This document shows, one piece after another, positions 181 to 53,522 of a stretch of DNA of 64,000 nucleotides; position 1 is the stretch's first letter; every line of letters begins with the position of its first letter. Under the pieces are notes generated by a model. That model saw nothing but the letters and a program-made list of their open reading frames with translations, was not told the origin of the DNA and ran no database searches. The stretch lies in assembly GCA_964016885.1 (NCBI GenBank), contig OZ024764.1, positions 11,160,001 through 11,224,000 on the forward strand, written 5' to 3'. The translations under genes were made by a program, and so were the position numbers. The DNA is from Eledone cirrhosa. Its lineage: Eukaryota.

Positions 181-1525
181 CCCTTTAGCATTCACATTAC
201 TCTATATATACTATTATATTTTAATGGTAAAGGCTTTATCTCACATAATATCTCGCATAACATTCACATTACTCTATATATACTATTGTATTTTAATGGT
301 AAAGGCTTTATCTCACATAATATCTCGCATAACATTCACATTACTCTATATATACTATTGTATTTTAATGGTAAAGGCTTTATCTCACATAATATCTCAC
401 ATAACATTCACATTACTCTATATATACTATTGTATTTTAATGGTAAAGACTTTACCTCACATAATATCTCACATAGCATTCACATTACTCTATATATACT
501 ATTGTATTTTAATGGTAAAGACTTTACCTCACATAATATCTCACAACAGTTACATTACTCTATATATACTATTGTATTTTAATGGTAAAGACTTTACCTC
601 ACATAATATCTCACAACAGTTACATTACTCTATATATACTATTGTATTTTAATGGTAAAGGCTTTATCTCACATAATATCTCGCATAACATTCACATTAC
701 TCTATATATACTATTGTATTTTAATGGTAAAGGCTTTATCTCACATAATATCTCACATAACATTCACATTACTCTATATATACTATTGTATTTTAATGGT
801 AAAGACTTTACCTCACATAATATCTCACATAGCATTCACATTACTCTATATATACTATTGTATTTTAATGGTAAAGACTTTACCTCACATAATATCTCAC
901 AACAGTTACATTACTCTATATATACTATTGTATTTTAATGGTAAAGACTTTACCTCACATAATATCTCACAACAGTTACATTACTCTATATATACTATTG
1001 TATTTTAATGGTAAAGACTTTACCTCACATAATATCTCACAACAGTTACATTACTCTATATATACTATTGTATTTTAATGGTAAAGACTTTACCTCACAT
1101 AATATCTCACAACAGTTACATTACTCTATATATACTATTGTATTTTAATGGTAAAGACTTTACCTCACATAATATCTCACAACAGTTACATTACTCTATA
1201 TATACTATTGTATTTTAATGGTAAAGACTTTACCTCACATAATATCTCACAACAGTTACATTACTCTATATATACTATTGTATTTTAATGGTAAAGACTT
1301 TACCTCACATAATATCTCACAACAGTTACATTACTCTATATATACTATTGTATTTTAATGGTAAAGACTTTACCTCACATAATATCTCACATAATATTGA
1401 ATCTATGAGATTTTGATGTTATTTATTTTGAGAACAATACCAGTTTGAGTGACCAGTTACGGCCAGTTTCAACAGAAAAAGGTAGAGAATTCTGGCCGGT
1501 TTTGGCCGGTTTGAACATTAAAGGG
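181..1525. mobile_element. Non-autonomous piggyBac-like element (MITE) with internal tandem array
   Basis: TTAA on both sides (177-180, 1526-1529). Termini CCCTTTAGCATTCA and TGAACATTAAAGGG are imperfect inverted repeats. Second copy at 62210-63971. Confidence 0.75.
190..1392. repeat. 72/70-bp tandem array, about 17 units
   Basis: ATGGTAAAG recurs at 224, 296, 368, 440, 512, 582, 652, 724, 796, 868, 938 ... 1358. Block 296-651 is duplicated at 652-1007. Confidence 0.95.
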
Positions 1526-1568
1526 TTAACATTCAAGGGTTAACATTCTGTAATAATTTAACAGAATT

Positions 1569-2633: not shown

Positions 2634-3230
2634 TTGTTTCTACTTTAGGCACAAAGCCAGCAAATACCCAGTTCATTACTGGTACTTTATTTTATCGACC
2701 CCGTAAGGATGAAAGGCAAAGTCAACCTCGGTTGATGTGTATATAATGGTGTATATATGATAGTGTATATATAATGATGTGTGGAGTGTAAACTCGGCCA
2801 GATTAGGTTAGATTAGATATATAATGGTGTATACATATTGGTGCGTATATGACAGTGTATATATAATTGTTTCTATTTTTTGGCACAAGGCCAGCAAATA
2901 CTCAGTGCATTACTGGTACTTTATTTAATCGACCCCGTAAAGATGAAAGCAAAGTTAACCTCGGCGGGATTTGAACTCAGAATGGCAAGGGCCGTAACTC
3001 TATGCATCAAAGCACGGCGTCCGAGCCTCTACCGATACTGCCAATATATAATTGTTTCTACTTTTGGCACAAGGCCAGCAATTACCCCAGTACATTACTG
3101 GTACTTTATTTTATCAACCCCGTAAAGATGAAAGGCAAAGTTAACCTCGGCGGGATTTGAACTCAGAATGGCAAGGGCCGTAACTCTATGCGTCAAAGCA
3201 TGACGTTCGACCCTCTACCGATACTGCCAA
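2634..3230 (-). mobile_element. Three SINE family A copies (2634-2733 partial; 2868-3050 and 3052-3230 in tandem) within a local duplication
   Basis: Each has gtttctacttt.ggcacaa.gccagcaa...actggtactttatt...gatgaaa(g)gcaaagt. The flanking motif gtgtaaact..gcca.att recurs near 2382, 2786 and 3249. Confidence 0.85.
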
Positions 3231-3340
3231 TATATAATGGTGTGTGGAGTGTAAACTCAGCCATATTAGGATTAGATAGATATGTTGTTATTTTGTGCCA
3301 TGCTAAAGATAATTGTGAGTAAATAGATGGCTGTCAGACA

Positions 3341-3480: not shown

Positions 3481-3830
3481 GGAGGCACATGGCTTAGTGG
3501 TTAGAGCATTGGCCTTGCAATCGAAAGGTTGTGAGTTCAATTCTCAGACCGGGTGATGTGTTGTTTCCTTGAGCAAGACACTTTATTTCACATTGCTCCA
3601 GTTTACTCAGCTGTAGAAATGAGATGATAGGGGCTGGGGTCCCTATCATTCCACTGCAAAGTGGACGTGTAGGTGCCACGGCAAAAAAGCACCCAGCACT
3701 CACTGTAAATAAATGAGGTTGGTGTTAGGAAGGGCATCCAGCTGTAGAAATCAAGCCAGAATCGGTTCCCGTCCCACCCTTGCAAGCAGGGAAAAGCGGA
3801 CGTAAAATGATGATGATGATGATGATGATG
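3481..3830 (+). mobile_element. tRNA-derived SINE family B (CORE/V-like centre, RTE-LINE-like tail)
   Basis: A box TGGCTTAGTGG, B box GTTCAATTC, central ccttgagcaagacacttta, tail ggttggtgttaggaagggcatccagctgtagaaa...(gat)n shared with the RTE LINE 3' end. Confidence 0.9.
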
Positions 3831-4710: not shown

Positions 4711-5588
4711 TAAAAATATATATTTATATATAAAATATATATATATATAAATATAATTGGAAATCAGTAAAATCGAATCTCTGGCGGTTTGCAAGTGAAT
4801 TCGGCCTACTTATATGAAATGATGAGTTAGCAAAGCACTCGATAAGATAGGTCCTTAGAGTAATAACATACGTTTAAATAGCTTGACAAATCGAACATTG
4901 TGGTAGGCTAAACTAACACACAATATATACCAGAGCAACGATAGAACTAATCAGGTTGAGAAAAAGTACACCTGGACAAATGAAACGAATAGTCGCTCAA
5001 AGTGTTTCTTTGAATCCTAAATCAAATATCCGACTTACTTGAAGGCAAGCTCCTGGCATTGGTGACCAAACGTTGGATTCAGTTTTTCAACAGGTTTATC
5101 GTTCTGTTTTATAAACAAATATTGACCTACCCTTAAAGAATGCGACCATGTCGGTTGGAAGCTCGCGGGATGGGAGTGATAAATTATATGTTGCTGCAAT
5201 AAGCTGCTAATCGTATCTATAATTATCACGTGCTAATTCCAGCAAGGGAAATAACCCCCGGTCCCAGGCGGTTATTCAAAAAGTTAGCGAAAAAGGAAAT
5301 ATTAAAAATGCCAGCTAATCATCATGATAAGTTCTCGACTAGATGTTATAAAACAAACACTAATATATAACCAATCAACAAAATTGTCTAATTAAATTAA
5401 TTAGTTAATTATTAAATCTAGGAGAATAATATAATTGGAAATCAGTATAAATATATGTAGAAGTTCTATTTAATTTGTTGGGATACAACAAGCAAATATT
5501 TTTATAACTGATATAAAGCACTCAACAAATTTTTGGAGTAAAAATACGATATATTAACAAATGGAAACTATATTTATAAAACCATATT

Positions 5589-5653
5589 TATTTCATTATA
5601 CATATTTCAAGGACACCAAAGCAAATTATGGTGCGCTTTCATCAGATAAAATA
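5589..5653 (-). ncRNA. Type I hammerhead ribozyme
   Basis: Reverse complement reads tattttat-CTGATGA-AAG..CACCA..TGGTG..CTT-GAAA-TATGTAT-A-atgaaata. Confidence 0.7.
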
Positions 5654-5790
5654 TAATATAGATCAGTTTTATAAACAAATATTGACATACCCTTAAAGAA
5701 TGCGACCATGTCTGTTGGAAGCTCGCGGATAAACATGGTCGCATTCTTTAAGGGTATGTCAATATTTATTTATAAAACTGATCTATATTA

Positions 5791-5855
5791 TATTTTATCT
5801 GATGAAAGTGCACCATAATTTGCTTTGGTATCCTTGAAATATGTATAATGAAATA
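5791..5855 (+). ncRNA. Type I hammerhead ribozyme
   Basis: Stem I tattttat/atgaaata, CTGATGA 5799-5805, stem II AAG..ACCA/TGGT..CTT, GAAA 5836-5839, near-palindromic stem III ATATGTAT, AUA triplet. Confidence 0.7.
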
Positions 5856-6374
5856 AATATGGTTTTATAAATATAGTTTCCATTTGTTAATATATTGTAT
5901 ATATAAATATATATGTATATATATATGTATATATGTATATAAAATACACACGCACACAGATATACAGATAGATATATACACATATACACACACACACACA
6001 CACACATATATATACACATATATGCATACACTCACATATGTATATATATATATATATGTGTGTGTATATATATATATATATAATTTATTTATTTATTCAC
6101 ACAACCATTTCAACATATCCGAATATCGCCAAAATATATTGTAAGCAGAAAAAAATAATACACCATCACCCACACCACTACAACACCACCCATACTACTA
6201 CAACAACAACACCCATACTACAACAACAACACCCATACTACCACCACCACCACCACAGAAAAATAAAAGTCTTGGATATTTTATAAATTGGTTGTTAAGT
6301 GGAGATATAGAAGTCCTGTTATTAGATTATAGTGTGTAGGTGGTTGGGGGTGAGTGTGTGAAGTGGGGGTGTTG

Positions 6375-7433: not shown

Positions 7434-7656
7434 GCAATGTGTTTTAAAAGCAATTTACGTTCTCACTCACATGTTTGTCTTTGTTAATTATTATCATTAT
7501 CATTATTGTTGTTGTCCTTCTTCTACTTCTTCCTCTCCTCCACTTCTTCTTCTTCTTCAACATGTTCTTCTAATTATCTATGTTGTTGTTGTTGTTGTTA
7601 CTATTGATGTTGTTATTATGGCCAATAAAGAAACCATTATCATTAACATTATTGTT

Positions 7657-8494
7657 ATGAGATAAAATAAAGTACCAGTAATACACTGGGGTAATTGCTG
7701 GCTTTGTGCCAAAAGTAGAAACAGTTATGAGATAAAATAAAGTACCAGTAATACACTGGGGTAATTGCTGGCCTTGTGACAAAAGTAGAAACAGTTATGA
7801 GATAAAATAAAGTACCAGTAATACACTGGGGTAATTGCTGGCCTTGTGACAAAAGTAGAAACAGTTATGAGATAAAATAAAGTACCAGTAATACACTGGG
7901 GTAATTGCTGGCCTTGTGACAAAAGTAGAAACAGTTATGAGATAAAATAAAGTACCAGTAATACACTGGGGTAATTGCTGGCCTTGTGCCAAAAGTAGAA
8001 ACAATTATGAGATAAAATAAAGTACCAGTAATACACTGGGGTAATTGCTGGCCTTGTGCCAAAAGTAGAAACAATTATGTGATAAAATAAAGTACCAGTA
8101 ATACACTGGGGTAATTGCTGGCCTTGTGCCAAAAGTAGAAACAATTATGAGATAAAATAAAGTACCAGTAATACACTGGGGTGATTGCTGGCCTTGTGAC
8201 AAAAGTAGAAACAATTGAGATAAAATAAAGTACCAGTAATACACTGGGGTGATTGCTGGCCTTGTGACAAAAGTAGAAACAATTATGAGATAAAATAAAG
8301 TACCAGTAATACACTGGGGTGATTGCTGGCCTTGTGACAAAAGTAGAAACAGTTATGAGATAAAATAAAGTACCAGTAATACACTGGGGTGATTGCTGGC
8401 CTTGTGACAAAAGTAGAAACAATTATGAGATAAAATAAAGTACCAGTAATACACTGGGGTGATTGCTGGCCTTGTGCCAAAAGTAGAAACAGTT
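7657..8494 (+). repeat. 70-bp tandem array, 12 units, derived from the 3' part of SINE family A
   Basis: Unit atgagataaaataaagtaccagtaatacactggggtaattgctggccttgtg(a/c)caaaagtagaaaca(g/a)tt matches the reverse complement of the SINE end at 43281-43343. Confidence 0.95.
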
Positions 8495-8569
8495 ATTATT
8501 GTTATTGTTTTGTCGTTGTACTTCACTTGTTGCTGTTGTGGCTGTTGTGGCTGTTGCTGTAGTAATGAT

Positions 8570-10045
8570 ATTGTGGTGGTAGTGGTGGTGGTGGTGGTGG
8601 GCATGGTGCTGGTAGTGGTGGTTGTAGTGGTGTTGGTAGTAGTGGTGGTGGTGGTAGTGGTGGTGGGCATGGTGCTGGTAGTGGTGGTAGTAGTGGTGTT
8701 GGTAGTAGTGGTGGTGGTGGTAGTGGTGGTGGGCATGGTGCTGGTAGTGGTGGTAGTAGTGGTGGTGGTGGTAGTGGTGGTGGGCATGGTGCTGATAGTG
8801 GTGGTAGTAGTGGTGTTGGTAGTGGTGGTGGTGGTGGTAGTGGTGGTGGGCATGGTGCTGATAGTGGTGGTAGTAGTGGTGTTGGTAGTAGTGGTGGTGG
8901 GCATGGTACTGGTAGTGGTGGTAGTAGTGGTGGTAGTGGTGGTGGGCATGGTGCTGGTAGTGGTGGTAGTAGTGGTGGTAGTGGTGGTGGGCATGGTGCT
9001 GGTAGTGGTGGTAGTAGTGGTGTTGGTAGTAGTGGTAGTAGTGGTGGTGGGCATGGTGCTGGTAGTGGTGGTAGTAGTGGTGTTGGTAGTAGTGGTGGTG
9101 GTGGTAGTGGTGGTGGGCATGGTGCTGGTAGTGGTGGTAGTAGTGGTGTTGGTAGTAGTGGTGGTGGTGGTAGTGGTGGTGGGCATGGTGCTGATAGTGG
9201 TGGTTGTAGTGGTGTTGGTAGTAGTGGTGGTGGGCATGGTACTGGTAGTGGTGGTAGTAGTGGTGGTAGTGGTGGTGGGCATGGTGCTGGTAGTGGTGGT
9301 AGTGGTGGTGGGCATGGTGCTGGTAGTGGTGGTGGTAGTAGTGGTGGTGGTGGTAGTGGTGGTGGCCATGGTACTGGTAGTGGTGGTAGTAGTGGTGTTG
9401 GTAGTAGTGGTGGTAGTGGTAGTGATAGTAGTGGTGTTGGTGGTAGTAGTGGTAGTGGTGGTAGTAGTAGTAGTAGTAGTGGTTGTTGTTGTGGCTGTTG
9501 CTGTAGTAATGATATTGTGGTGGTAGTGGTGGTGGGCATGGTGCTGGTAGTGGTGGTAGTAGTGGTGTTGGTAGTAGTGGTGGTAGTGGTGGTGGGCATG
9601 GTGCTGGTAGTGGTGGTGTTGGTAATAGTGGTGGTGGTGGTGGGCATGGTGCTGGTAGTGGTGTTGGTAGTAGTGGTGGTGGTGGTAGTGATAGTAGTGG
9701 TGTTGGTGGTAGTAGTGGTTCTGGTAGTAGTGGTGGTAGTAGTGGCAGTAGTATTAGTAGTAGTTGTTGCTGTTGTAGCTGTGGCTGTAATATTGTGGTG
9801 GTAGTGGTGGTTATGGTAGTAGTAGTAGTAGTAATTGTAGTTGTTGTTGTACTTCACTTGTTGCTGTGGCTGTACTTGTAATACTGTGGTGGCAGTAGTG
9901 GTAGTAGTTGTTGTGGCTGTAGTTGTATTATTGTAGTAGTAGTAGTAGTAGTAGTAGTAGCTGGAGTTGTAACTGTTGTAGTTGTTGAGGCCGTAGTTGT
10001 AATATTATAGTAGTAGTAGTAGCTGGAGTTGTTGTAACTGTAGAT

Positions 10046-13100: not shown

Positions 13101-14305
13101 TACTACAGAGATGTGGTTAGAATGTCTGAGGAAAGAATCTCTAGATTGAGAGATCACAGCTCTGATACTACAGACATGTGGTTAGAATGTCTGAGGAAAG
13201 AATCACTGAATTGAGAGATCACAGCTCGGATACTACAGACATGTGGTTAGAATGTCTCAGGAAAGAATCACTGAATTGAGAGATCACAGCTCTGATACTA
13301 CAGACATGTGGTTAGAATGTCTCAGGAAAGAATCTCTGAATTGAGAGATCACAGCTTCGATGCTACAGACATGTGGTTAGAATGTCTCAGGAAAGAATCT
13401 CTGAATTGAGAGATCACAGCTCTGATACTACAGACATGTGGTTAGAATGTCTGAGGAAAGAATCTCTAGATTGAGAGATCACAGCTCTGATACTACAGAC
13501 ATGTGGTTAGAATGTCTGAGGAAAGAATCTCTAGATTGAGAGATCACAGTTCTGATACTACAGACATGTGGTTAGAATGTCTGAGGAAAGAATCTCTAGA
13601 TTGAGAGATCACAGTTCTGATACTACAGACATGTGGTTAGAATGTCTGAGGAAAGAATCTCTAGATTGAGAGATCACAGCTCTGATACTGCAGACATGTA
13701 GTTAGAATGTCTGAGGAAAGAATCTCTGAATTGAGAGATCACAGCTCTGATACTACAGACATGTGGTTAGAATGTCTCAGGAAAGAATCTCTGAATTGAG
13801 AGATCACAGTTCCGATACTACAGACATGTGGTTAGAATGTCTCACGAAATAATCTCTGAAATGAGAGATTCCAGCTCTGATACTACAGACATGTGGTTAG
13901 AATGTCCCAGGAAAGAATCTCTAGATTGAGAGATCACAGCTCTGATACTACAGACATGTAGTTAGAATGTCTGAGGAAAGAATCTCTGAATTGAGAGATC
14001 ACACCTCTGATACTACAGACATGTGGTTAGAATGTCTCAGGAAAGAATCTCTGAATTGAGAGATAACAGCTCTGATAGTACAGACATGTGGTTAGAATGA
14101 TTCAGGAAAGAATCTCTGAATTGAGAGATCACAGCTCTGTTACTACAGACATGTGGTTAGAATGTCTCAGGAAAGAATCTCCGTATTGAGAGATCACAGC
14201 TCTGATACTACAGACATGTGGTTAGAATGTCTCAGGAAAGAATCTCTGAATTGAGAGATCACAGCTCTGATACTACAGACATGTGGTTAGAATGTCTCAG
14301 GAAAA
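13101..14305 (+). repeat. 65-bp tandem array, about 18.5 units, derived from RTE RT coding sequence
   Basis: cagacatgtg at 13171, 13236, 13301 ... The unit translates IERSQL*YYRHVVRMS(Q/E)ER. Confidence 0.95.
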
Positions 14306-17164: not shown

Positions 17165-17340
17165 GTATGGTATAAGAGGGATAAGTTGTGGTGTGCAGGA
17201 GAGAAGACTGAGATGGTATGGACATGTGATGTACATGGAAGATGACCGCTGGGTAAAGAAGTGCCAAGAAATCCCAGTTGAAGGAAGATGCAGTAGAGGT
17301 AGACCGTGAAAAACAAGTGACAAGTGGAGAGATGCTGCGA
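17165..17340 (+). pseudogene. RTE LINE RT C-terminal fragment
   Basis: GIRGISCGVQERRLRWYGHVMYMEDDRWVKKCQEIPVEGRCSRGRP*. Confidence 0.85.
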
Positions 17341-17344
17341 TGAA

Positions 17345-17988
17345 TAGGACCAATCCCTCTGGGAGTTGATCTTCTGGTCTTGGCAGAAGTTTTTCTCGTC
17401 GGAGAAAAACCACAGCATGTCTGGCTCCAGTGGCTGTTTCAACTTGTTGATCAGCTTCTTTGCGTGCTTCAGTCGCTTTTCTTGCATCGCCTTTGACAGA
17501 AATTGTCCTTTCCTCACCTTGTATGAAACATAGCGAATGTCTTCATGTATCAGCCTAATGAGCTCTTCATCCACGCCTTTCTCCTTTGTAATGGTACGCA
17601 TCGACTTACTAGGTTCATTGTTGATGATATCCTGAACTCGGACGTTCTGAAGGCGTCAGATCGTCGATCATGTGTTTTCCTCTCTGATGTTGCTTCGTAG
17701 TCGAATCCTGAATCTTCCAATTCCTTTCTGACCTTTTCCACCATTCTCCTGCTGACGCTGAGAAAGTCTGAAATTTCCTTATTTGTCCTCCCGGCGCGGA
17801 TTCCAAGAAGAACTCTGTGTCTCTTCCACAAATTTGGAGGTTCAAAATTATTCATAATCAATTATTCTGAAAATAAATAATTTAAATATAGTCACTGTTT
17901 TTATGAAGACAAGAGTGACAATGGAAGTAAAAAAAATTTGCATAAAATTAGCAGTTGAAAATTGCGAATAAATATCGTCCACACCCTG
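17345..17988 (-). mobile_element. Truncated Tc1/mariner-superfamily (maT/DD37D-like) transposon: 5' end and frameshifted transposase N-terminal half
   Basis: TA-CAGGGTG terminus at 17988. HTH-like GRTNKEISDFLSVSRRMVEKVRK, then LSKAMQEKRLKHAKKL...WFFSDEKNFCQDQKINSQ (first catalytic Asp). Remainder missing. Confidence 0.85.
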
Positions 17989-18009
17989 TATATATATATA
18001 TATATGTAT

Positions 18010-24600: not shown

Positions 24601-24651
<51 letters not shown>

Positions 24652-24681
24652 ATATCAAAAGATGGTTAAAAGAGTTCCATG

Positions 24682-26317: not shown

Positions 26318-26354
26318 ATATATATATATATATATATATCGGGATATCAATATA

Positions 26355-38300: not shown

Positions 38301-41300
38301 TAGGAGACATGGTAAAAAGGCTCCCAGTCCACACTGTAAGGTGGTCATGTAGGAGACACAGTAAAAAGGCTCCCAGTCCACACTGTAAAGTGGTCATGTA
38401 GGAGACATGGTAAAAAGGCTCCCAGTCCACACTGTAAAGTGGTCATGTAGGAGACACAGTAAAAAGGCTCCCAGTCCACACTGTAAGGTGGTCATGTAGG
38501 AGACACAGTAAAAAGGCTCCCAGTCCACACTGTAAAGTGGTCATGTAGGAGACACAGTAAAAAGGCTCCCAGTCCACACTGTAAAGTGGTCATGTAGGAG
38601 ACACAGTAAAAAGGCTCCCAGTCCACATTGTAAGGTGGTCATGTAGGAGACACAGTGAAAAGGCTCCCAGACCACACTGTAAGGTGGTCATGTAGGAGAC
38701 ACAGTGAAAAGGCTCCCAGTCCACACTGTAAGGTGGTTGTGTAGGAGACACAGTGAAAAGGCTCCCAGTCCACACTGTAAGGTGGTCATGTAGGAGACAC
38801 AGTAAAAAGGCTCCCAGTCCACACTGCACTGTAAGGTGGTCATGTAGGAGACACAGTAAAAAGGCTCCCAGTCCACACTGTAAGGTGGTTGTGTAGGAGA
38901 CACAGTAAAAAGGCTCCCAGTCCACACTGTAAGGTGGTCATGTAGGAGACATGGTAAAAAGGCTCCCCGTCCACACTGTAAGGTGGTCATGTAGGAGACA
39001 TGGTAAAAAGGCTCCCAGTCCACACTGTAAGGTGGTCATGTAGGAGACACAGTAAAAAGGCTCCCAGTCCACACTGTAAAGTGGTCATGTAGGAGACACA
39101 GTAAAAAGGCTCCCAGTCCACACTGTAAGGTGGTCATGTAGGAGACACAGTAAAAAGGCTCCCAGTCCACACTGTAAAGTGGTCATGTAGGAGACACAGT
39201 AAAAAGGCTCCCAGTCCACACTGTAAGGTGGTCATGTAGGAGACACAGTGAAAAGGCTCCCAGTCCACACTGTAAAGTGGTCATGTAGGAGACACGGTAA
39301 AAAGGCTCCCAGTCCACACTGTAAAGTGGTCATGTAGGAGACACAGTAAAAAGGCTCCCAGTCCACACTGTAAAGTGGTCATGTAGGAGACACAGTAAAA
39401 AGGCTCCCAGTCCACACTGTAAGGTGGTCATGTAGGAGACACAGTGAAAAGGCTCCCAGACCACACTGTAAAGTGGTCATGTAGGAGACACAGTGAAAAG
39501 GCTCCCAGTCCACACTGTAAGGTGGTTGTGTAGGAGACAGTGAAAAGGCTCCCAGTCCACACTGTAAGGTGGTCATGTAGGAGACACAGTGAAAAGGCTC
39601 CCAGTCCACACTGTAAGGTGGTCATGTAGGAGACACGGTAAAAAGGCTCCCAGTCCACACTGTAAGGTGGTCATGTAGGAGACACGGTAAAAAGGCTCCC
39701 AGTCCACACTGTAAGGTGGTCATGTAGGAGACACAGTAAAAAGGCTCCCAGTCCACACTGCACTGTAAGGTGGTCATGTAGGAGACACGGTAAAAAGGCT
39801 CCCAGTCCACACTGTAAGGTGTCATGTAGGAGACACAGTAAAAAGGCTCCCAGTCCACACTGTAAAGTGGTCATGTAGGAGACACAGTAAAAAGGCTCCC
39901 AGTCCACACTGTAAGGTGGTCATGTAGGAGACACGGTAAAAAGGCTCCCAGTCCACACTGTAAAGTGGTCATGTAGGAGACACAGTAAAAAGGCTCCCAG
40001 TCCACACTGTAAAGTGGTCATGTAGGAGACACAGTAAAAAGGCTCCCAGTCCACACTGTAAAGTGGTCATGTAGGAGACACAGTGAAAAGGCTCCCAGTC
40101 CACACTGTAAAGTGGTCATGTAGGAGACACAGTAAAAAGGCTTCCAGTTCACGCTGTAAAGTGGTCGTGTAGGAGACACAGTACAAAGGCTCCCAGTCCA
40201 CACTGTAAAGTGGTCATGTAGGAGACACAGTAAAAAGGCTCCCAGTCCACACTGTAAAGTGGTCATGTAGGAGACACAGTAAAAAGGCTCCCAGTCCACA
40301 CTGTAAGGTGGTCATGTAGGAGACACAGTAAAAAGGCTCCCAGTCCACACTGTAAAGTGGTCATGTAGGAGACACAGTAAAAAGGCTCCCAGTCCACACT
40401 GTAAGGTGGTCATGTAGGAGACACAGTAAAAAGGCTCCCAGTCCACACTGTAAAGTGGTCATGTAGGAGACACAGTAAAAAGGCTCCCAGTCCACACTGT
40501 AAAGTGGTAGTGTAGGAGACATGGTAAAAAGGCTCCCAGTACACACTGTAAAGTGGTCATGTAGGAGACACAGTAAAAAGGCTCCCAGTACACACTGTAA
40601 AGTGGTCATGTAGGAGACACAGTGAAAAGGCTCCCAGTCCACACTGTAAAGTGGTCATGTAGGAGACACAGTGAAAAGGCTCCCAGTCCACACTGTAAAG
40701 TTGTGGTGTAGGAGACACAGTAAAAAGGCTCCCAGTCCACACTGTAAAGTGGTCATGTAGGAGACACAGTAAAAAGGCTCCCAGTCCACACTGCACTGTA
40801 AGGTGGTCATGTAGGAGACACAGTAAAAAGGCTCCCAGTCCACACTGTAAGGTGGTTGTGTAGGAGACACAGTAAAAAGGCTCCCAGTCCACACTGTAAG
40901 GTGGTCATGTAGGAGACATGGTAAAAAGGCTCCCAGTCCACACTGTAAGGTGGTCATGTAGGAGACATGGTAAAAAGGCTCCCAGTCCACACTGTAAGGT
41001 GGTCATGTAGGAGACACAGTAAAAAGGCTCCCAGTCCACACTGTAAAGTGGTCATGTAGGAGACACGGTAAAAAGGCTCCCAGTCCACACTGTAAAGTGG
41101 TCATGTAGGAGACACAGTAAAAAGGCTCCCAGTCCACACTGTAAGGTGGTCATGTAGGAGACACAGTAAAAAGGCTCCCAGTCCACACTGTAAAGTGGTC
41201 ATGTAGGAGACACAGTAAAAAGGCTCCCAGTCCACACTGTAAGGTGGTCATGTAGGAGACACAGTGAAAAGGCTCCCAGTCCACACTGTAAAGTGGTCAT

Positions 41301-42972
41301 GTAGGAGACACGGTAAAAAGGCTCCCAGTCCACACTGTAAAGTGGTCATGTAGGAGACACAGTAAAAAGGCTCCCAGTCCACACTGTAAAGTGGTCATGT
41401 AGGAGACACAGTAAAAAGGCTCCCAGTCCACACTGTAAGGTGGTCATGTAGGAGACACAGTGAAAAGGCTCCCAGACCACACTGTAAAGTGGTCATGTAG
41501 GAGACACAGTGAAAAGGCTCCCAGTCCACACTGTAAGGTGGTTGTGTAGGAGACACAGTGAAAAGGCTCCCAGTCCACACTGTAAGGTGGTCATGTAGGA
41601 GACACAGTGAAAAGGCTCCCAGTGTACACTGTAAGGTGGTCATGTAGGAGACACGGTAAAAAGGCTCCCAGTCCACACTGTAAGGTGGTCATGTAGGAGA
41701 CACGGTAAAAAGGCTCCCAGTCCACACTGTAAGGTGGTCATGTAGGAGACACAGTAAAAAGGCTCCCAGTCCACACTGCACTGTAAGGTGGTCATGTAGG
41801 AGACACGGTAAAAAGGCTCCCAGTCCACACTGTAAGGTGGTCATGTAGGAGACACAGTAAAAAGGCTCCCAGTCCACACTGTAAAGTGGTCATGTAGGAG
41901 ACACAGTAAAAAGGCTCCCAGTCCACACTGTAAGGTGGTCATGTAGGAGACACGGTAAAAAGGCTCCCAGTCCACACTGTAAGGTGGTCATGTAGGAGAC
42001 ACAGTAAAAAGGCTCCCAGTCCACACTGTAAGGTGGTCATGTAGGAGACACGGTAAAAAGGCTCCCAGTCCACACTGTAAGGTGGTCATGTAGGAGACAC
42101 AGTAAAAAGGCTCCCAGTCCACACTGTAAAGTGGTCATGTAGGAGACACAGTAAAAAGGCTCCCAGTCCACACTGTAAAGTGGTCATGTAGGAGACACAG
42201 TAAAAAGGCTCCCAGTCCACACTGTAAAGTGGTCATGTAGGAGACACAGTGAAAAGGCTCCCAGTCCACACTGTAAAGTGGTCATGTAGGAGACACAGTA
42301 AAAAGGCTTCCAGTTCACGCTGTAAAGTGGTCGTGTAGGAGACACAGTACAAAGGCTCCCAGTCCACACTGTAAAGTGGTCATGTAGGAGACACAGTAAA
42401 AAGGCTCCCAGTCCACACTGTAAAGTGGTCATGTAGGAGACACAGTAAAAAGGCTCCCAGTCCACACTGTAAGGTGGTCATGTAGGAGACACAGTAAAAA
42501 GGCTCCCAGTCCACACTGTAAAGTGGTCATGTAGGAGACACAGTAAAAAGGCTCCCAGTCCACACTGTAAGGTGGTCATGTAGGAGACACAGTAAAAAGG
42601 CTCCCAGTCCACACTGTAAAGTGGTAGTGTAGGAGACATGGTAAAAAGGCTCCCAGTACACACTGTAAAGTGGTCATGTAGGAGACACAGTAAAAAGGCT
42701 CCCAGTACACACTGTAAAGTGGTCATGTAGGAGACACAGTGAAAAGGCTCCCAGTTCACACTGTAAGGTGGTCATGTAGGAGACACAGTAAAAAGGCTCC
42801 CAGTCCACACTGTAATGTGGTTGGTGTTAGGAAGGGCATCCAGCTGTAAAGAAAACCTGTCAGAGACACTTCCGTGCGAGCGAGATGTGGTCTCCCGACC
42901 ATTCCTGCATCAAATGGAACAAAACCATCTAACCCATGCTAGCGTGGAAGATGGATGTAAAATGATGATGAT
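26355..42972 (+). mobile_element. 5'-truncated RTE LINE 3' end interrupted by satellite expansion in its 3' UTR
   Basis: 26355-26440 encodes DLAHLHLSRTI/LDRDLWRHAVVQKT (compare DLTRLHLSKTMSLDRDLWRYSVIEKT at 54548-54640). After the array, 42816-42972 resumes ggttggtgttaggaagggcatccagctgt...(gat)n. Confidence 0.85.
26542..42815. repeat. 49-bp satellite, about 332 units, with higher-order repeats
   Basis: Unit cagtccacactgtaa(g/a)gtggtcatgtaggagacacagt(a/g)aaaaggctcc. Diagnostic variants recur at 1767- and 4127-bp spacing. Confidence 0.98.
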
Positions 42973-42982
42973 ATATATACAC

Positions 42983-43960
42983 CAGTGGCGAAAGGTAACT
43001 TGGAAAGCAGGGCATGCAGTTCAATCGTCATGGCAGATGGTGGGGCTGTGGATCCCTACCAACCCATTCGCCAAATTATTCGTCATCCTCTCCTCCATTT
43101 GTAAATGTGATATAAGATAATTTTAATGTGGGAAAATGCACATCTACCAACAGACCACACTTGAGGCTTGATACCCCCTCTCCACTAGACACGATGTCTC
43201 CCCATTAGAAACAGCCTGGCGACAAGCCTGTCATGATATCTATTACATGAGAATTATGAGTAATAAAACCTTCAAATAATTGTTTCTACTTTAGGCACAA
43301 GGCCAGCAATTACCCAGTGCATTACTGGTACTTTATTTTATCGACCCCGTAAGGATGAAAGGCAAAGTCAACCTCGGCGGGATTTGAACTCGGATCGTAA
43401 AGAGACGTAACTATGCTGGAAAGCATGGCGTCCGACCCTCTACCGATACTGCCAATCCACCGCCCTTCAAATAATGAAATATTTAACATTCATTTGTAAA
43501 TCAATTCAATTCTTCATTTCTTTTTGCCATTTTTTATTGATCACTTTACAATAAAATGTATTAGCACCACACTTTACCTTCATCTTCTTCAAAAGGTCTT
43601 TATTCATGGAAATGAAGACCAAATTGCTCCCTTTGAGAACACCTTAATAATTATTTACTCCCTTTAATTAAGAAAACGATCTATCACATGCAGTAGATGT
43701 GGCAGTTATGGTCAGAATCAGGCGTAATAATTTTGTTACTTCTGTCAGAGCTTGATTTAGTTCAAGTTCCAGTATTATATCTGCGACTTGCTGGATGCTT
43801 TACGCTTGCTTTGCAAAATCTGCAGCATAAACTGATTTCAAAAACACTTACATTGGAAATTTTCTTTCGTAAGCGTGAAAAAGGTTTGACTGCAACAATT
43901 CCACAAATCTGAACTCTGCCATTGTTTTAAATCTTTGTTCAACGAGGACAATAATAAAAA
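42983..43960 (-). mobile_element. Degenerate hAT transposon 3' part (C-terminal dimerisation domain)
   Basis: Minus-strand ALTEVTKLLRLILTITATSTACDRSFS*LKGVNNY ... NLVFISMNKDLLKKM fits the hAT xSxxxERSFSxL motif. CAGTGGCG terminus-like sequence at 42983. Confidence 0.75.
43281..43463 (-). mobile_element. Full-length tRNA-derived SINE family A (Meta-domain-like) with 12-bp target site duplication
   Basis: A box TGGCAGTATCGG, B box GTTCAAATCC, core gcctttcatccttacggggtcgataaaataaagtaccag. ccttcaaataat duplicated at 43269-43280 and 43464-43475. Confidence 0.9.
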
Positions 43961-44066
43961 TAGAGTTTATTTTTTTTACATAACTTTAAAAAAAATAATT
44001 TGATATATTTAAAATCCAATTTTAAAGCATTACAATGATTAAATGGATGAAAATTTTACCTTTTTA

Positions 44067-44177
44067 ATACAGAGTCGGGCTAGATCGATACAGATCGAAA
44101 CTTGAGCTGATCAGTGGCGAAACACGTGTCACCTACCAATAAACGTAATGAAGGAGTAGCTAATTATCCTTGTTTTA

Positions 44178-44185
<8 letters not shown>
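44067..44185 (+). mobile_element. PLE-like family 3 remnant with mutated minimal hammerhead
   Basis: CTGATCA-GtggC-GAAA-CACGTG-TC at 44107-44130. 5' segment is inverted relative to the 23332 copy. Confidence 0.6.
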
Positions 44186-44213
<28 letters not shown>

Positions 44214-44216
<3 letters not shown>

Positions 44217-45101
44217 TCATCATCATCATCAACGTTTAACGTCCGTGTTCCACGCTTGCATGGGTTTGGACGGAGGTAGTCCCACTTGAGGCAAGAGTGA
44301 TTGTCTTGCTCGCATAGGACTGTCTGGCAGGTTTTCTACAGCTGGATGCCCTTCCTAACACCAACCACATTTACAGTGTGGGGCTGGGAGGTTTTTACCG
44401 TGTTGCCTACACGGCCACATTACAGCGTGGACTGTCTGGCAGGTTTTCTACAGTTGGATGCCCTTCCTAACACCAACCACATTTACAGTGTGGGGCTGGG
44501 AGGTTTTTACCGTGTTGCCTACACGGCCACATTACAGCGTGGACTGTCTGGCGGGTTTTCTACAGCTGGATGCCCTTCCTAACACCAACCACATTTACAG
44601 TGTGGGGCTGGGAGGTTTTTACCGTGTTGCCTACACGGCCACATTACAGCGTGGACTGTCTGGCGGGTTTTCTACAGCTGGATGCCCTTCCTAACACCAA
44701 CCACATTTACAGTGTGGGTCTGGGAGGTTTTTACCGTGTTGCCTACACGGCCACATTTACAGCGTGGACTGTGTGTTTTTTTGTCGTGACACCTACACGA
44801 TCTCATTTGTTTCGGCCTGGATGGTGCGGCACCAACATAACTTTACATAGAAGGGGGCGGTGTGGAGGGGGTGGGGGTGGTGGGACGGGGGGGGGGGGGG
44901 TATTTTGTTAGAGATGCCTACTGGCTGTAGTAGGTTTTACTATGTATTTAGGTAAGGCGGGTCTTCTCTGTTACTGAGTACCGCCAAAGGTCTCGGTCCA
45001 GTGACATTGTCTTGGAGAGGTGTAAGTGTGTGAGGTCAGAGTTTATCAGCTCGTCCCAGGTTTTTCTAGGTCTGCCTATTCCGTGGCTACCGTCTATCTT
45101 T
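44214..45101 (-). mobile_element. 5'-truncated RTE LINE with four 112-bp units in the 3' UTR
   Basis: Near-identical to 54047-54700. ggactgtctgg at 44317, 44429, 44541 and 44653. Confidence 0.9.
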
Positions 45102-45414: not shown

Positions 45415-45590
45415 ATATATATATATATATATATATATAGTGTTTTGATAATCTAGCTGGTGATAACTGTACTTAAAATCAATTGTCACAGCCGCACAGC
45501 AGATAACGATTTTTAGACTCTGGGCCAATGAAACGTTTGTTAATACTTGCAACTTCCCTTGACCACCTCTGTCCAGGTCTTCCTCATTAC

Positions 45591-48500
45591 ATGCCTGCCT
45601 GTACCAGTACAATGCCCAAGTCTTCCTTGGTCTTCTTCTTACACAGCTTCCATCCACTAGGAACTCCTGGTACCCCATCACTCTACAATCATCACCCATA
45701 CACATTATGTGCCTGCCTGTACCAGTACAATGCCCGAGTCTTCCTTGGTCTTCCTCTCACACAGCTTCCATCCACTAGGAACTCCTGGTACCTCATCACT
45801 CTACAATCATCACCCATACACATTATGTGCCTACCTGGACCAGTACAATGCCCAAGTCTTCCTTGGTCTTCCTCTCACACAGCTTCCATCCACTAGGAAC
45901 TCCTGGTACCTCATCACTCTACAATCATCATCCATACACATTATGTGCCTGCCTGGACCAGTACAATGCCCGAGTCTTCCTTGGTCTTCCTCTCACACAG
46001 CTTCCATCCACTAGGAACTCCTGGTACCTCATCACCCTACAATCATCACCTATACACATTATGTGCCTGCCTGGACCAGTACAATGCCCAAGTCTTCCTT
46101 GGTCTTCCTCTCACACAGCTTCCATCCACTAGGAACTCCTGGTACCTCATCACCCTACAATCATCACCTATACACATTATGTGCCTGCCTGGACCAGTAC
46201 AATGCCCAAGTCTTCCTTGGTCTTCCTCTTACACAGCTTCCATCCACTAGGAACTCCTGGTACCTCATCACCCTACAATCATCATCCATACACATTATGT
46301 GCCTGCCTGGACCAGTACAATGCCCAAGTCTTCCTTGGTCTTCCTCTCACACAGCTTCCATCCACTAGGAACTCCTGGTACCTCATCACCCTACAATCAT
46401 CACCTATACACATTATGTGCCTGCCTGGACCAGTACAATGCCCAAGTCTTCCTTGGTCTTCCTCTCACACAGCTTCCATCCACTAGGAACTCCTGGTACC
46501 TCATCACCCTACAATCATCACCTATACACATTATGTGCCTGCCTGGACCAGTACAATGCCCAAGTCTTCCTTGGTCTTCCTCTTACACAGCTTCCATCCA
46601 CTAGGAACTCCTGGTACCTCATCACCCTACAATCATCATCCATACACATTATGTGCCTGCCTGGACCAGTACAATGCCCAAGTCTTCCTTGGTCTTCCTC
46701 TCACACAGCTTCCATCCACTAGGAACTCCTGGTACCTCATCACCCTACAATCATCACCTATACACATTATGTGCCTGCCTGGACCAGTACAATGCCCAAG
46801 TCTTCCTTGGTCTTCCTCTCACACAGCTTCCATCCACTAGGAACTCCTGGTACCTCATCACCCTACAATCATCACCTATACACATTATGTGCCTGCCTGG
46901 ACCAGTACAATGCCCAAGTCTTCCTTGGTCTTCTTCTTACACAGCTTCCATCCACTAGGAACTCCTGGTACCTCATCACCCTACAATCATCATCCATACA
47001 CATTATGTGCCTGCCTGGACCAGTACAATGCCCAAGTCTTCCTTGGTCTTCCTCTCACACAGCTTCCATCCACTAGGAACTCCTGGTACCTCATCACCCT
47101 ACAATCATCACCTATACACATTATGTGCCTGCCTGGACCAGTACAATGCCCAAGTCTTCCTTGGTCTTCCTCTTACACAGCTTCCATCCACTAGGAACTC
47201 CTGGTACCTCATCACCCTACAATCATCACCCATACACATTATGTGCCTTCCTGGACCAGTACAATGCCCAAGTCTTCCTTGGTCTTGTTCTTACACAGCT
47301 TCCATCAACTAGGAACTCCTGGTACCTCATCACCCTACAATCATCACCCATACACATTATGTGCCTGCCTGGACCAGTACAATGCCCAAGTCTTCCTTGG
47401 TCTTCCTCTTACACAGCTTCCATCCACTAGGAACTCCTGGTACCTCATCACCCTACAATCATCACCCATACACATTATGTGCCTGCCTGGACCAGTACAA
47501 TGCCCAAGTCTTCCTTGGTCTTCCTCTTACACAGCTTCCATCCACTAGGAACTCCTGGTACCTCATCACCCTACAATCATCACCCATACACATTATGTGC
47601 CTGCCTGGACCAGTACAATGCCCGAGTCTTCCTTGGTCTTCCTCTCACACAGCTTCCATCCACTAGGAACTCCTGGTACCTCATCACCCTACAATCATCA
47701 CCCATACACATTATGTGCCTGCCTGGACCAGTACAATGCCCAAGTCTTCCTTGGTCTTCCTCTCACACAGCTTCCATCCACTAGGAACTCCTGGTACCTC
47801 ATCACCCTACAATCATCACCCATACACATTATGTGCCTGCCTGGACCAGTACAATGCCCGAGTCTTCCTTGGTCTTCTTCTTACACAGCTTCCATCCACT
47901 AGGAACTCCTGGTACCTCATCACCCTACAATCATCACCCATACACATTATGTGCCTGCCTGGACCAGTACAATGCCCAAGTCTTCCTTGGTCTTCCTCTC
48001 ACACAGCTTCCATCCACTAGGAACTCCTGGTACCTCATCACTCTACAATCATCACCCATACACATTATGTGCCTGCCTGGACCAGTACAATGCCCAAGTC
48101 TTCCTTGGTCTTGTTCTTACACAGCTTCCATCAACTAGGAACTCCTGGTACCTCATCACTCTACAATCATCATCCATACACATTATGTGCCTGCCTGGAC
48201 CAGTACAATGCCCATGTCTTCCTTGGTCTTCCTCTCACACAGCTTCCATCCACTAGGAACTCCTGGTACCTCATCACTCTACAATCATCACCCATACACA
48301 TTATGTGCCTGCCTGGACCAGTACAATGCCCAAGTCTTCCTTGGTCTTCCGCTTACACAGCTTCCATCCACTAGGAACTCCTGGTACCTCATCACTCTAC
48401 AATCATCATCCATACACATTATGTGCCTGCCTGGACCAGTACAATGCCCAAGTCTTCCTTGGTCTTCATCTTACACAGCTTCCATCCACTAGGAACTCCT

Positions 48501-51500
48501 GGTACCTCATCACTCTACAATCATCATCCATACACATTATGTGCCTGCCTGGACCAGTACAATGCCCAAGTCTTCCTTGGTCTTCTTCTTACACAGCTTC
48601 CATCCACTAGGAACTCCTGGTACCTCATCACTCTACAATCATCATCCATACACATTATGTGCCTGCCTGGACCAGTACAATGCCCAAGTCTTCCTTGGTC
48701 TTCTTCTTACACAGCTTCCATCCACTAGGAACTCCTGGTACCTCATCACTCTACAATCATCACCCATACACATTATGTGCCTGCCTGGACCAGTACAATG
48801 CCCAAGTCTTCCTTGGTCTTCCGCTTACACAGCTTCCATCAACTAGGAACTCCTGGTACCTCATCACTCTACAATCATCATCCATACACATTATGTGCCT
48901 GCCTGGACCAGTACAATGCCCAAGTCTTCCTTGGTCTTCTTCTTACACAGCTTCCATCCACTAGGAACTCCTGGTACCTCATCACTCTACAATCATCATC
49001 CATTCACATTATGTGCCTGCCTGGACCAGTACAATGCCCAAGTCTTCCTTGGTCTTCTACTTACACAGCTTCCATCCACTAGGAACTCCTGGTACCTCAT
49101 CACTCTACAATCATCACCCATACACATTATGTGCCTGCCTGGACCAGTACAATGCCCAAGTCTTCCTTGGTCTTCATCTTACACAGCTTCCATCCACTAG
49201 GAACTCCTGGTACCTCATCACTCTACAATCATCATCCATACACATTATGTGCCTGCCTGGACCAGTACAATGCCCAAGTCTTCCTTTGTCTTCTTCTTAC
49301 ACAGCTTCCATCCACTAGGAACTCCTGGTACCTCATCACCCTACAATCATCACCCATACACATTATGTGCCTGCCTGGACCAGTACAATGCCCAAGTCTT
49401 CCTTGGTCTTCCCCTTACACAGCTTCCATCAACTAGGAACTCCTGGTACCTCATCACTCTACAATCATCACCCATACACATTATGTGCCTGCCTGGACCA
49501 GTACAATGCCCAAGTCTTCCTTGGTCTTCCACTTACACAGCTTCCATCCACTAGGAACTCCTGGTACCTCATCACCCTACAATCATCACCCATACACATT
49601 ATGTGCCTGCCTGGACCAGTACAATGCCCAAGTCTTCCTTGGTCTTCCGCTTACACAGCTTCCATCCACTAGGAACTCCTGGTACCTCATCACCCTACAA
49701 TCATCACCCATACACATTATGTGCCTGCCTGGACCAGTACAATGCCCGAGTCTTCCTTGGTCTTCCTCTCACACAGCTTCCATCCACTAGGAACTCCTGG
49801 TACCTCATCATCCATACACATTATGTGCCTGCCTGGACCAGTACAATGCCCAAGTCTTCCTTGGTCTTCCTCTCACACAGCTTCCATCCACTAGGAACTC
49901 CTGGTACCTCATCATCCATACACATTATGTGCCTGCCTGGACCAGTACAATGCCCGAGTCTTCCTTGGTCTTCCTCTTACACAGCTTCCATCCACTAGGA
50001 ACTCCTGGTACCTCATCACTCTACAATCATCACCCATACACATTATGTGCCTGCCTGGACCAGTACAATGCCCAAGTCTTCCTTGGTCTTCCCCTCACAC
50101 AGCTTCCATCCACTAGGAACTCCTGGTACCTCATCACTCTACAATCATCACCCATACACATTATGTGCCTGCCTGGACCAGTACAATGCCCAAGTCTTCC
50201 TTGGTCTTCCTCTCACACAGCTTCCATCCACTAGGAACTCCTGGTACCTCATCAATCTACAATCATCACCCATACACATTATGTGCCTGCCTGGACCAGT
50301 ACAATGCCCAAGTCTTCCTTGGTCTTCCTCATACACAGCTTCCATCCACTAGGAACTCCTGGTACCTCATCACCCATACACATTATGTGCCTGCCTGGAC
50401 CAGTACAATGCCCAAGTCTTCCTTGGTCTTCCTCATACACAGCTTCCATCCACTAGGAACTCCTGGTACCTCATCACCCTACAATCATCACCCATACACA
50501 TTATGTGCCTGCCTGGACCAGTACAATGCCCAAGTCTTCCTTGGTCTTCTTCTTACACAGCTTCCATCCACTAGGAACTCCTGGTACCTCATCACTCTAC
50601 AATCATCATCCATACACATTATGTGCCTGCCTGGACCAGTACAATGCCCGAGTCTTCCTTGGTCTTCTTCTTACACAGCTTCCATCCACTAGGAACTCCT
50701 GGTACCTCATCACTCTACAATCATCACCCATACACATTATGTGCCTGCCTGGACCAGTACAATGCCCGAGTCTTCCTTGGTCTTCTTCTTACACAGCTTC
50801 CATCCACTAGGAACTCCTGGTACCTCATCACTCTACAATCATCACCCATACACATTATGTGCCTGCCTGGACCAGTACAATGCCCGAGTCTTCCTTGGTC
50901 TTCTTCTTACACAGCTTCCATCCACTAGGAACTGCTGGTACCTCATCACTCTACAATCATCACCCATACACATTATGTGCCTGCCTGGACCAGTACAATG
51001 CCCGAGTCTTCCTTGGTCTTCTTCTTACACAGCTTCCATCCACTAGGAACTCCTGGTACCTCATCACCCTACAATCATCACCCATACACATTATGTGCCT
51101 GCCTGGACCAGTACAATGCCCGAGTCTTCCTTGGTCTTCTTCTTACACAGCTTCCATCCACTAGGAACTCCTGGTACCTCATCACTCTACAATCATCACC
51201 CATACACATTATGTGCCTGCCTGGACCAGTACAATGCCCAAGTCTTCCTTGGTCTTGTTCTTACACAGCTTCCATCCACTAGGAACTCCTGGTACCTCAT
51301 CACCCTACAATCACCACCCATACACATTATGTGCCTGCCTGGACCAGTACAATGCCCGAGTCTTCCTTGGTCTTCCTCTTACACAGCTTCCATCCACTAG
51401 GAACTCCTGGTACCTCATCACCCTACAATCATCACCCATACACATTATGTGCCTGCCTGGACCAGTACAATGCCCAAGTCTTCCTTGGTCTTGTTCTTAC

Positions 51501-53522
51501 ACAGCTTCCATCCACTAGGAACTCCTGGTACCTCATCACCCTACAATCATCACCCATACACATTATGTGCCTGCCTGGACCAGTACAATGCCCGAGTCTT
51601 CCTTGGTCTTCCTCTTACACAGCTTCCATCCACTAGGAACTCCTGGTACCTCATCACCCTACAATCATCACCCATACACATTATGTGCCTGCCTGGACCA
51701 GTACAATGCCCAAGTCTTCCTTGGTCTTGTTCTTACACAGCTTCCATGAACTAGGAACTCCTGGTACCTCATCACCCTACAATCATCACCCATACACATT
51801 ATGTGCCTGCCTGGACCAGTACAATGCCCGAGTCTTCCTTGGTCTTCTTCTTACACAGCTTCCATCCACTAGGAACTCCTGGTACCTCATCACCCTACAA
51901 TCATCACCCATACACATTATGTGCCTGCCTGGACCAGTACAATGCCCGAGTCTTCCTTGGTCTTCCTCTTACACAGCTTCCATCCACTAGGAACTCCTGG
52001 TACCTCATCACCCTACAATCATCACCCATACACATTATGTGCCTGCCTGGACCAGTACAATGCCCAAGTCTTCCTTGGTCTTGTTCTTACACAGCTTCCA
52101 TCCACTAGGAACTCCTGGTACCTCATCACCCTACAATCATCACCCATACACATTATGTGCCTGCCTGGACCAGTACAATGCCCGAGTCTTCCTTGGTCTT
52201 CCTCTCACACAGCTTCCATCCACTAGGAACTCCTGGTACCTCATCACCCTACAATCATCACCCATACACATTATGTGCCTGCCTGGACCAGTACAATGCC
52301 CGAGTCTTCCTTGGTCTTCCTCTTACACAGCTTCCATCCACTAGGAACTCCTGGTACCTCATCACCCTACAATCATCACCCATACACATTATGTGCCTGC
52401 CTGGACCAGTACAATGCCCAAGTCTTCCTTGGTCTTGTTCTTACACAGCTTCCATCCACTAGGAACTCCTGGTACCTCATCACCCTACAATCATCACCCA
52501 TACACATTATGTGCCTGCCTGGACCAGTACAATGCCCGAGTCTTCCTTGGTCTTCCTCTTACACAGCTTCCATCCACTAGGAACTCCTGGTACTTCATCA
52601 CCCTACAATCATCATCCATACACATTATGTGCCTGCCTGGACCAGTACAATGCCCAAGTCTTCCTTGGTCTTGTTCTTACACAGCTTCCATGAACTAGGA
52701 ACTCCTGGTACCTCATCACCCTACAATCATCACCCATACACATTATGTGCCTGCCTGGACCAGTACAATGCCCGAGTCTTCCTTGGTCTTCCTCTTACAC
52801 AGCTTCCATCCACTAGGAACTCCTGGTACCTCATCACCCTACAATCATCACCCATACACATTATGTGCCTGCCTGGACCAGTACAATGCCCAAGTCTTCC
52901 TTGGTCTTGTTCTTACACAGCTTCCATGAACTAGGAACTCCTGGTACCTCATCACCCTACAATCATCACCCATACACATTATGTGCCTGCCTGGACCAGT
53001 ACAATGCCCGAGTCTTCCTTGGTCTTCCTCTTACACAGCTTCCATCCACTAGGAACTCCTGGTACCTCATCACCCTACAATCATCACCCATACACATTAT
53101 GTGCCTGCCTGGACCAGTACAATGCCCAAGTCTTCCTTGGTCTTCCTCTTACACAGCTTCCATCCACTAGGAACTCCTGGTACCTCATCACCCTACAATC
53201 ATCACCCATACACATTATGTGCCTGCCTGGACCAGTACAATGCCCGAGTCTTCCTTGGTCTTCCTCTCACACAGCTTCCATCCACTAGGAACTCCTGGTA
53301 CCTCATCACCCTACAATCATCACCCATACACATTATGTGCCTGCCTGGACCAGTACAATGCCCAAGTCTTCCTTGGTCTTCCTCTTACACAGCTTCCATC
53401 CACTAGGAACTCCTGGTACCTCATCACCCTACAATCATCACCCATACACATTATGTGCCTGCCTGGACCAGTACAATGCCCGAGCCTTCCTTGGTCTTCC
53501 TCTCACACAGCTTCCATCCACT
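45591..53522. repeat. 118-bp satellite, about 67 units, derived from RTE RT coding sequence on the minus strand
   Basis: ORF track steps by 118. Minus-strand unit reads RHIMCMGDDCRVMRYQEFLVDGSCVRGRPRKTW. Three 104-bp deleted units near 49800, 49905 and 50365. Confidence 0.97.

Follow-up and report, generated by a model that had tools for sequence, protein, structure and literature searches.

Tandem arrays with transposon-derived units in a 64-kb stretch of the Eledone cirrhosa genome

How do pieces of transposons become tandem arrays, and does this conversion call for a process peculiar to transposons? The question is raised by a 64,000-nucleotide stretch of the Eledone cirrhosa genome (assembly GCA_964016885.1, contig OZ024764.1, positions 11,160,001 to 11,224,000 of the forward strand; hereafter the window), in which Tandem Repeats Finder (TRF; score 30) masked 46,262 of 64,000 bp (72%) as tandem sequence. 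An initial annotation had described at least six independent arrays derived from transposable elements (TEs), covering about 28 kb, and had proposed a general mechanism that amplifies TE segments and may largely account for the growth of introns and genome. We found by sequence comparison that the units of seven arrays, A–G, all trace to pieces of RTE-type long interspersed nuclear elements (LINEs), short interspersed nuclear elements (SINEs), and a miniature inverted-repeat transposable element (MITE). These arrays are best explained as minisatellites that were seeded by slippage and grew by unequal exchange, a reading to which we assign a probability of roughly 0.65 and which includes a 49-bp motif at the 3′ ends of RTEs and SINEs as a reusable hot spot for array birth. 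The process is likely an ordinary, known one rather than a new transposon-specific one.

Array units and their transposon relatives

TRF recovered every array named in the initial annotation, with units matching at 94–98%, and arrays A–G (Table 1) comprise 28,151 bp of TE-seeded tandem sequence, G included. Array lengths span 0.2–16 kb, and D (16.3 kb) and F (7.9 kb) together account for 24,218 bp, or 86% of the total. These are lengths in the assembly; the arrays themselves are real in sequence. Similar units are arranged head to tail, as in TE-derived minisatellites and satellites, and in all seven arrays the unit either shares homology with a dispersed element or lies inside one, with C the weakest case and F related at the protein level only. 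The arrays go back to six origins from five source segments, as E and G represent one event; addition of three small dimers (I, J, and a 38-bp dimer) brings the TE-derived origins to nine. The repeat landscape of the window fits octopus DNA.

Table 1. Arrays, host elements, and related copies, numbered from the first nucleotide of the window. ORF, open reading frame; UTR, untranslated region.
Feature	Positions	Strand	Description
MITE-like host of A	177-1524	+	TTAA beside 14-bp imperfect inverted ends; left subterminal 70/72 bp amplified ~17 times
Array A	194-1391	+	70/72 bp, 16.9 copies (TRF)
Array I	2859-3238	-	Head-to-tail dimer of ~190-bp tRNA-head SINE; 9-bp direct repeat at edges
Array B	7654-8496	+	70 bp, 12.1 copies (TRF)
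66-bp array	8576-9719		Simple sequence
Array C	13101-14304	+	65 bp, 18.5 copies (TRF); unit codes RTE C-terminal stretch IERSQLxYYRHVVRMSQER; RTE ORF remnant runs to ~14520
41-bp array	18975-21843		Simple sequence
Relative of C element	21845-21930	+	Diverged, single copy; blastn 24 bp at 96%; ~80 bp aligned at 21848-21927
Left flank of D	26340-26541	+	End of RTE ORF plus first part of 3′ UTR; 73% to E/G element
Array D	26542-42821	+	49 bp, ~331 copies (TRF)
Right flank of D	42822-42975	+	Remaining RTE 3′ UTR, ending in (ATG)n
~190-bp SINE	43275-43466	-	Single full-length copy, parent family of B and I; both ends loosely defined
RTE 3′ fragment, host of E	44215-45100	-	Carries 112 bp x4; 7-bp direct repeat at edges
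Array E	44317-44772		112 bp, 4.1 copies (TRF); in minus-strand RTE fragment
Array F	45585-53522	-	118 bp, 67.6 copies (TRF); unit codes RTE C-terminal stretch HIMCMGDD...GRPRKTW; both edges rearranged
RTE 3′ fragment, host of G	54048-55173	-	Longer; carries 112 bp x2; same subfamily as E host
Array G	54149-54380		112 bp, 2.1 copies (TRF); in minus-strand RTE fragment
Array H	59086-60446	.	58 bp (TRF); no TE parent found
SINE host of J	62472-62860	+	tRNA-head SINE with RTE-type tail; carries 49-bp dimer (array J, 62637-62744)
38-bp dimer	63032-63114		7-bp direct repeat; inside nested element 62281-63845

A single RTE/SINE 3′ motif underlies both the 49-bp unit of D and the 112-bp unit of E and G, and single-copy elements already carry it in degenerate repeated form. 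The initial annotation had derived both units from the RTE 3′ UTR, and D is indeed flanked by an RTE ORF end on one side and an RTE tail on the other. The RTE ends carry (ATG)n tails, a short simple repeat, and microsatellites are common in RTE ends according to PMC9115989. The 112-bp unit contains the 49-bp motif, which the E/G element carries as a degenerate pair; the motif is single in three SINE copies (at 3481, 18010, and 61730), a dimer in their sister copy that hosts J, and a 331-mer in D. At the DNA level, blastn identified RTE and SINE tails as non-amplified relatives of D, E, and G.

Arrays E and G have a common tandem junction, a last unit that is one base longer, and flanks that are 93–94% identical, with different outer flanks. 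Because junction, last unit, and flanks agree, E and G represent one duplication that was spread by two insertions, and the same features rule out independent events. Their 112-bp units are 98–99% identical, compared to 93–94% for the flanks, and conversion between the arrays or constraint on this part may account for the difference; part of the unit region showed 0 differences over 93 bp in X19, one of the sequencing runs described below. In several homologs (P0001, P0005, and P0026), the ORF continues into a short terminal peptide, which matches the extreme 3′ end of RTE and SINE copies in the window (54048-54550 and 3760-3830; small-target E about 1e-4 to 2e-4). In the window RTE, several hundred bases that include the 49-bp motif separate the ORF stop from that 3′ end, in the manner of a UTR that was acquired as an insert.

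The B unit consists of the last 65 bp of a 5′-truncated ~190-bp SINE plus 5 bp of flanking sequence, is present in 12 copies, and is matched by several SINE copies at 89–95% (blastn); an 11-bp repeat resembling a target-site duplication (TSD) brackets the array. Because all B units start at an identical point and share changes relative to the dispersed SINE, a single SINE copy was the source. Template jumping was rejected as the origin of B, as the units are truncated identically. The tRNA-like head of the SINE that hosts J matched Rfam RF00005 (62472-62541; 30.9 bits), and the ~190-bp SINE of B and I has A- and B-box-like motifs by eye and no Rfam match. ARAGORN found no tRNA genes in the window.

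The host of array A is flanked by TTAA as its target site, and its short inverted ends begin with CCC. These features, characteristic of piggyBac-like MITEs, suggest that it is such an element, with other TTAA superfamilies remaining candidates; no piggyBac transposase lies in the window. A single-unit copy of the same element lies at 62200-63975, where the A unit has a non-amplified relative (62210-62278; 90% over 69 bp by blastn). This second copy is split by a nested element (62281-63845) that has 32-bp inverted ends (88%) and contains a SINE. An acidic reading frame inside the nested element (63225-63509, minus strand) recalls the ends of pogo-type transposases.

For C and F, we built a hidden Markov model (HMM) of 321 positions from 120 fetched LINE ORF homologs, against which a reversed control gave no matches. 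F aligned to positions 245–277 (best E 2e-6) and C, weakly, to positions 233–257 (E 0.16); by tblastn, the right flank of C gave an E value of 7e-6 and the unit itself about 1e-3. Both units correspond to the HVxRM...GRP stretch, downstream of the reverse transcriptase (RT) core. The initial annotation had placed their source in the RTE RT, but the profile mapping rules out the RT domain and points instead to a C-terminal ORF stretch (profile positions 233–277). Its claim of a non-amplified relative in the window for each array survives at the DNA level for A, B, and D/E/G, whereas C has only a diverged fragment and F has no DNA-level parent (0 blastn matches in the window), matching the window RTE fragments at the protein level (tblastx E 2e-6). 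Comparison of C with these fragments by tblastx gave nothing significant; its link to RTE came from the fetched homologs.

The RTE host resembles RT-bearing ORFs of elements without long terminal repeats (LTRs), with 165 matches (best E 1e-82), several of which carry PF00078; the sole cephalopod-labelled homolog, a protein of Octopus bimaculoides, matches at 71% across 39% of the query. No Pfam RT match was found among the 89 of 134 unmasked frames scanned in the window, which holds 3′ RTE fragments only, and the RTE copies are mostly 5′-truncated, with HMM matches at profile positions 227–312 in all but one copy. The host of C–G probably belongs to the RTE clade, judged by its C-terminal motif and (ATG)n tails rather than by a tree.

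Array edges, block repeats, and growth

Beyond unit ancestry and the common origin of E and G, two patterns bear on how the arrays formed. First, direct repeats flank the amplified segments. Edge repeats were read by eye on seven arrays (H lies outside the set, as do C and F, whose edges are rearranged) and measured 7 bp in E/G, 9 bp in I, 7 bp in the 38-bp dimer, 5 bp in B, 5 bp exact (8/9) in J, ~20 bp with one mismatch in D, and 2 bp in A. Repeats of at least 5 bp are thus present in six of the seven readable arrays, and the chances of at least 5, 7, or 9 bp at a random junction are 0.008, 0.0008, and 0.0002 (107,972 simulated). Single-unit copies, namely three SINEs and the X19 contigs, hold the edge repeats too. 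Second, higher-order repeats occur in three arrays: a 356-bp block of five units twice in A, a 354-bp repeat in F, and a 4127-bp repeat about three times in D. These repeats show that later growth proceeded via block duplication.

Slippage and unequal exchange are the processes that these edge and block patterns make likely. Once an element had inserted, slippage or crossover involving short direct repeats would start an array: misalignment between repeats of at least 5 bp, whether supplied by a TSD, by an internal match, or by the native degenerate 49-bp repeat, would give a dimer, and unequal exchange or conversion would then copy blocks of units and lengthen the array. If a dimer arose in an active element, retrotransposition could also spread it, as may have happened with E and G. 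Transposons would be the source probably because they form much of the non-simple DNA here. The same formation models are set out in PMC3389668 and PMC12628747.

Several points weigh against this explanation. The overlap at the edges of A is only 2 bp, and the edges of C and F are rearranged and unreadable. For five of the nine TE-derived origins, the source is the final few hundred bases of an RTE or the tail of its SINE; C and F, from two families, coincide on one protein motif. Nine of ten origins are TE-derived (p 0.004–0.06; see below), which leaves room for some TE bias. Finally, human TE-derived repeats fit these edge models in only about 6% of cases (PMC3389668).

The clustering at 3′ ends raises the alternative that RTE reverse transcription makes the first tandem copies, when the enzyme slips or jumps on its template close to the 3′ end of the RNA, and that RTE/SINE mobilisation spreads these seeds in a TE-specific, lineage-wide manner. 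C, D, E/G, F, and J all lie at an RTE or SINE 3′ end, the E/G duplication was carried in two insertions with different outer flanks, and one TSD-like repeat brackets B, all as this alternative would have it. However, RTE copies are mostly 5′-truncated, so that the 3′ end is what is on offer; A belongs to a DNA element, and no TE parent was found for H; the truncation of B is uniform; and the higher-order repeats of D, F, and A require exchange at the DNA level. We regard an origin of the arrays in reverse transcription as doubtful.

The block structure of D also bears on another reading: the small arrays would be real, while assembly would have inflated the length of D, and possibly that of F, such that 28 kb is an overstatement. 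D contains a 4197-bp exact repeat at a lag of 4127 bp, its 4127-bp blocks 1 and 2 are identical except at 2 sites, and no read or contig spans an array in the four sequencing runs compared, whose coverage was limited to the D edge and a single E unit. By contrast, block 3 differs from the others at 35–37 sites plus gaps, monomer variants number 42 among 303 in D and 44 among 67 in F, and recent unequal exchange yields the same pattern. Inflation of this kind seems to us improbable.

Related genomes and the question of transposon bias

Of 23 sequencing runs, four from three organisms (X1, X15, X19, and X21) were compared with the window, over 42745-44445 only; runs with small word shares counted as evidence only when compared in this way, and summed contig depth was not taken as a measure of copy number. 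For the 190-bp SINE, head-to-tail joints at 183–193 bp, with varied breakpoints, occurred in 36–82 contigs each in X15, as well as in X21 raw reads and 1–2 contigs of X1; none was found in X19 over the compared stretch. Three runs have a 74-bp SINE joint, and X15 contains both the exact B junction, in its contigs, and 48-bp D-junction variants. A tandem duplication of the SINE head (43422-43466), of 41–45 bp, was present in all four runs and is not in the window itself. X19 contigs match the window to 44435 and then go on as a single-unit form of the E element. Because X15 and the window have many differences in 43540-44000, X15 does not validate this locus.

These joints make recurrence of TE-to-tandem conversion in related genomes likely. 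The SINE joints of 183–193, 74, and 41–45 bp and the 48-bp D-junction variants could also be read as products of reverse transcription, but many joints have unspecified intervening sequence and may be neighbouring separate insertions, and joints to 43274-43276 among those listed amount to 197 raw reads in X21 against a depth of more than 10,000 (about 1%).

Arrays of other kinds are present too. For the 58-bp array H, blastn within the window returned only its own flanks and a low-complexity tract, and RTE proteins gave no match to H, A, or the 41-bp array. Because H and the 41- and 66-bp arrays of simple sequence amplify too, a TE-specific mechanism is not implied. GT/AT-rich arrays of 58 and 26 bp (58928-60446 and 2414-2630) are similar in flavour, with no TE parent found.

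Whether TEs are over-represented depends on their share of the unmasked sequence, which by hand annotation is between 7,619 (strict, 44%) and 10,703 (broad, 62%) of 17,304 bases; this is a lower bound, as array parents were masked out and the annotation used no repeat library. The seemingly unique 43030-44050 region, for example, drew several diverged contigs. Among origins with complex units, nine of ten are TE-derived (p 0.004 for the 44% share, 0.06 for 62%, both from hand annotation and a lower-bound share); counted as nine of 11, the values are 0.013 and 0.15, with the same lower-bound share. When simple-sequence minisatellites are counted (nine of 16–17), the TE excess vanishes, although this denominator is poorly matched. 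The recurrence of conversion proposed initially is supported within the window and, in related genomes, for the 190-bp SINE; TE specificity of the mechanism is less likely, given microhomology-type edges, non-TE arrays, and p values that range from 0.004 to 0.06 with the TE share assumed.

Another possibility is that replication stress has a local hot spot in the window, with its dense AT, CA, ACC, and GTA tracts and palindromes, and that its array density is atypical of the genome. The 72% tandem content fits this proposal, as do local palindromes and an inverted duplication at 96–98% identity, and it is compatible with slippage and unequal exchange, as a modifier. SINE joints in many contigs of other genomes speak against it, as does the lack of any telomere-type repeat in the window. 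We consider such a hot spot possible but somewhat unlikely.

Known systems and other elements

The initial annotation had called TE-derived satellites a matter of case-by-case description, but genome-wide surveys exist (PMC3389668, PMC7004042). In humans, 7,276 minisatellites, 23% of the total, are TE-derived (Ahmed and Liang 2012, PMC3389668). As here, TE pieces in the human genome give rise to arrays genome-wide, with hot spots within elements, flanking direct repeats of 5–20 bp, and spread of some arrays by transposition (PMC3389668). Unlike the human cases, those in the window involve RTEs, tRNA SINEs, and a MITE, reach 16 kb, and have edge repeats in six of seven readable arrays rather than the roughly 6% that fit edge models (PMC3389668). 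Array D is like the satellites of Ogre LTR retrotransposons in Lathyrus sativus (PMC7004042) and PisTR-A in pea (PMC9659126), in which native 3′ UTR tandem repeats sometimes expand, but its source is a non-LTR RTE and SINE tail. Array A is like the Xenopus MITE repeats Xstir and miDNA4 (PMC9659126, PMC12628747), in which a subterminal or internal unit is amplified inside an intact MITE, and differs from them in sequence. The units of C and F come from LINE coding sequence, as do those of chicken HinfI (from CR1) and of PROsat and Pvc20 (from L1 ORF2; PMC9659126), but C and F belong to the RTE clade, have short units, and are single loci as far as seen. The window is thus a new instance of TE-to-tandem conversion by a mechanism that is itself already known.

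The octopus genome is 66% repeats, with a mean TE content of 54 kb per 100 kb (PMC13282606). The parts of the octopus literature that were searched, including PMC13282606, PMC9115989, PMC4758252, and PMC12988792, describe no such arrays, a statement whose scope excludes supplements, subscription papers, and repeat databases. If the window is typical of the genome, then octopod repeat annotation and TE age estimates would be mistaking tandem expansion for TE copies; the 49-bp motif of RTEs and SINEs, present in one window as single unit, dimer, and 331-mer, would be a good natural experiment on minisatellite birth. We tentatively raise the speculative and rather unlikely idea that octopod RTE LINEs and their SINEs have this 49-bp tandem seed in common at their 3′ ends, that retrotransposition has planted it at tens of thousands of loci, and that amplification of the seed and of nearby 3′ segments throughout the lineage has produced a dispersed, multi-locus minisatellite family that accounts for a measurable part of octopus genome and intron size. 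Among non-LTR elements, RTEs and SINEs would then parallel Ogre and Helitron as seeders of satellites.

The window yielded no host exon to support the intron growth proposed initially, and Pfam searches of 89 of 134 unmasked frames (at least 42 amino acids) gave only weak, sub-threshold matches (Tc1-like helix-turn-helix [HTH], hAT, and TSTD2_N). The HTH match belongs to a Tc1/mariner-like transposase fragment (17349-17990, minus strand) that adjoins an RTE fragment (17169-17348), and the hAT dimerisation match (43671-43799; E 4e-4, below cut-off) lies in a region that is multi-copy in contigs. A broken frame at 1560-1860 had no Pfam match; its motifs recall a LINE with a restriction-like endonuclease. 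Near-perfect palindromes (arms of 172–203 bp, 96–98%) at 5539-5905, 24637-25156, and 57942-58379, and a 130-bp inverted duplication with copies 2 kb apart (22595-22724 and 24802-24931), are possibly Penelope-like or born in replication.

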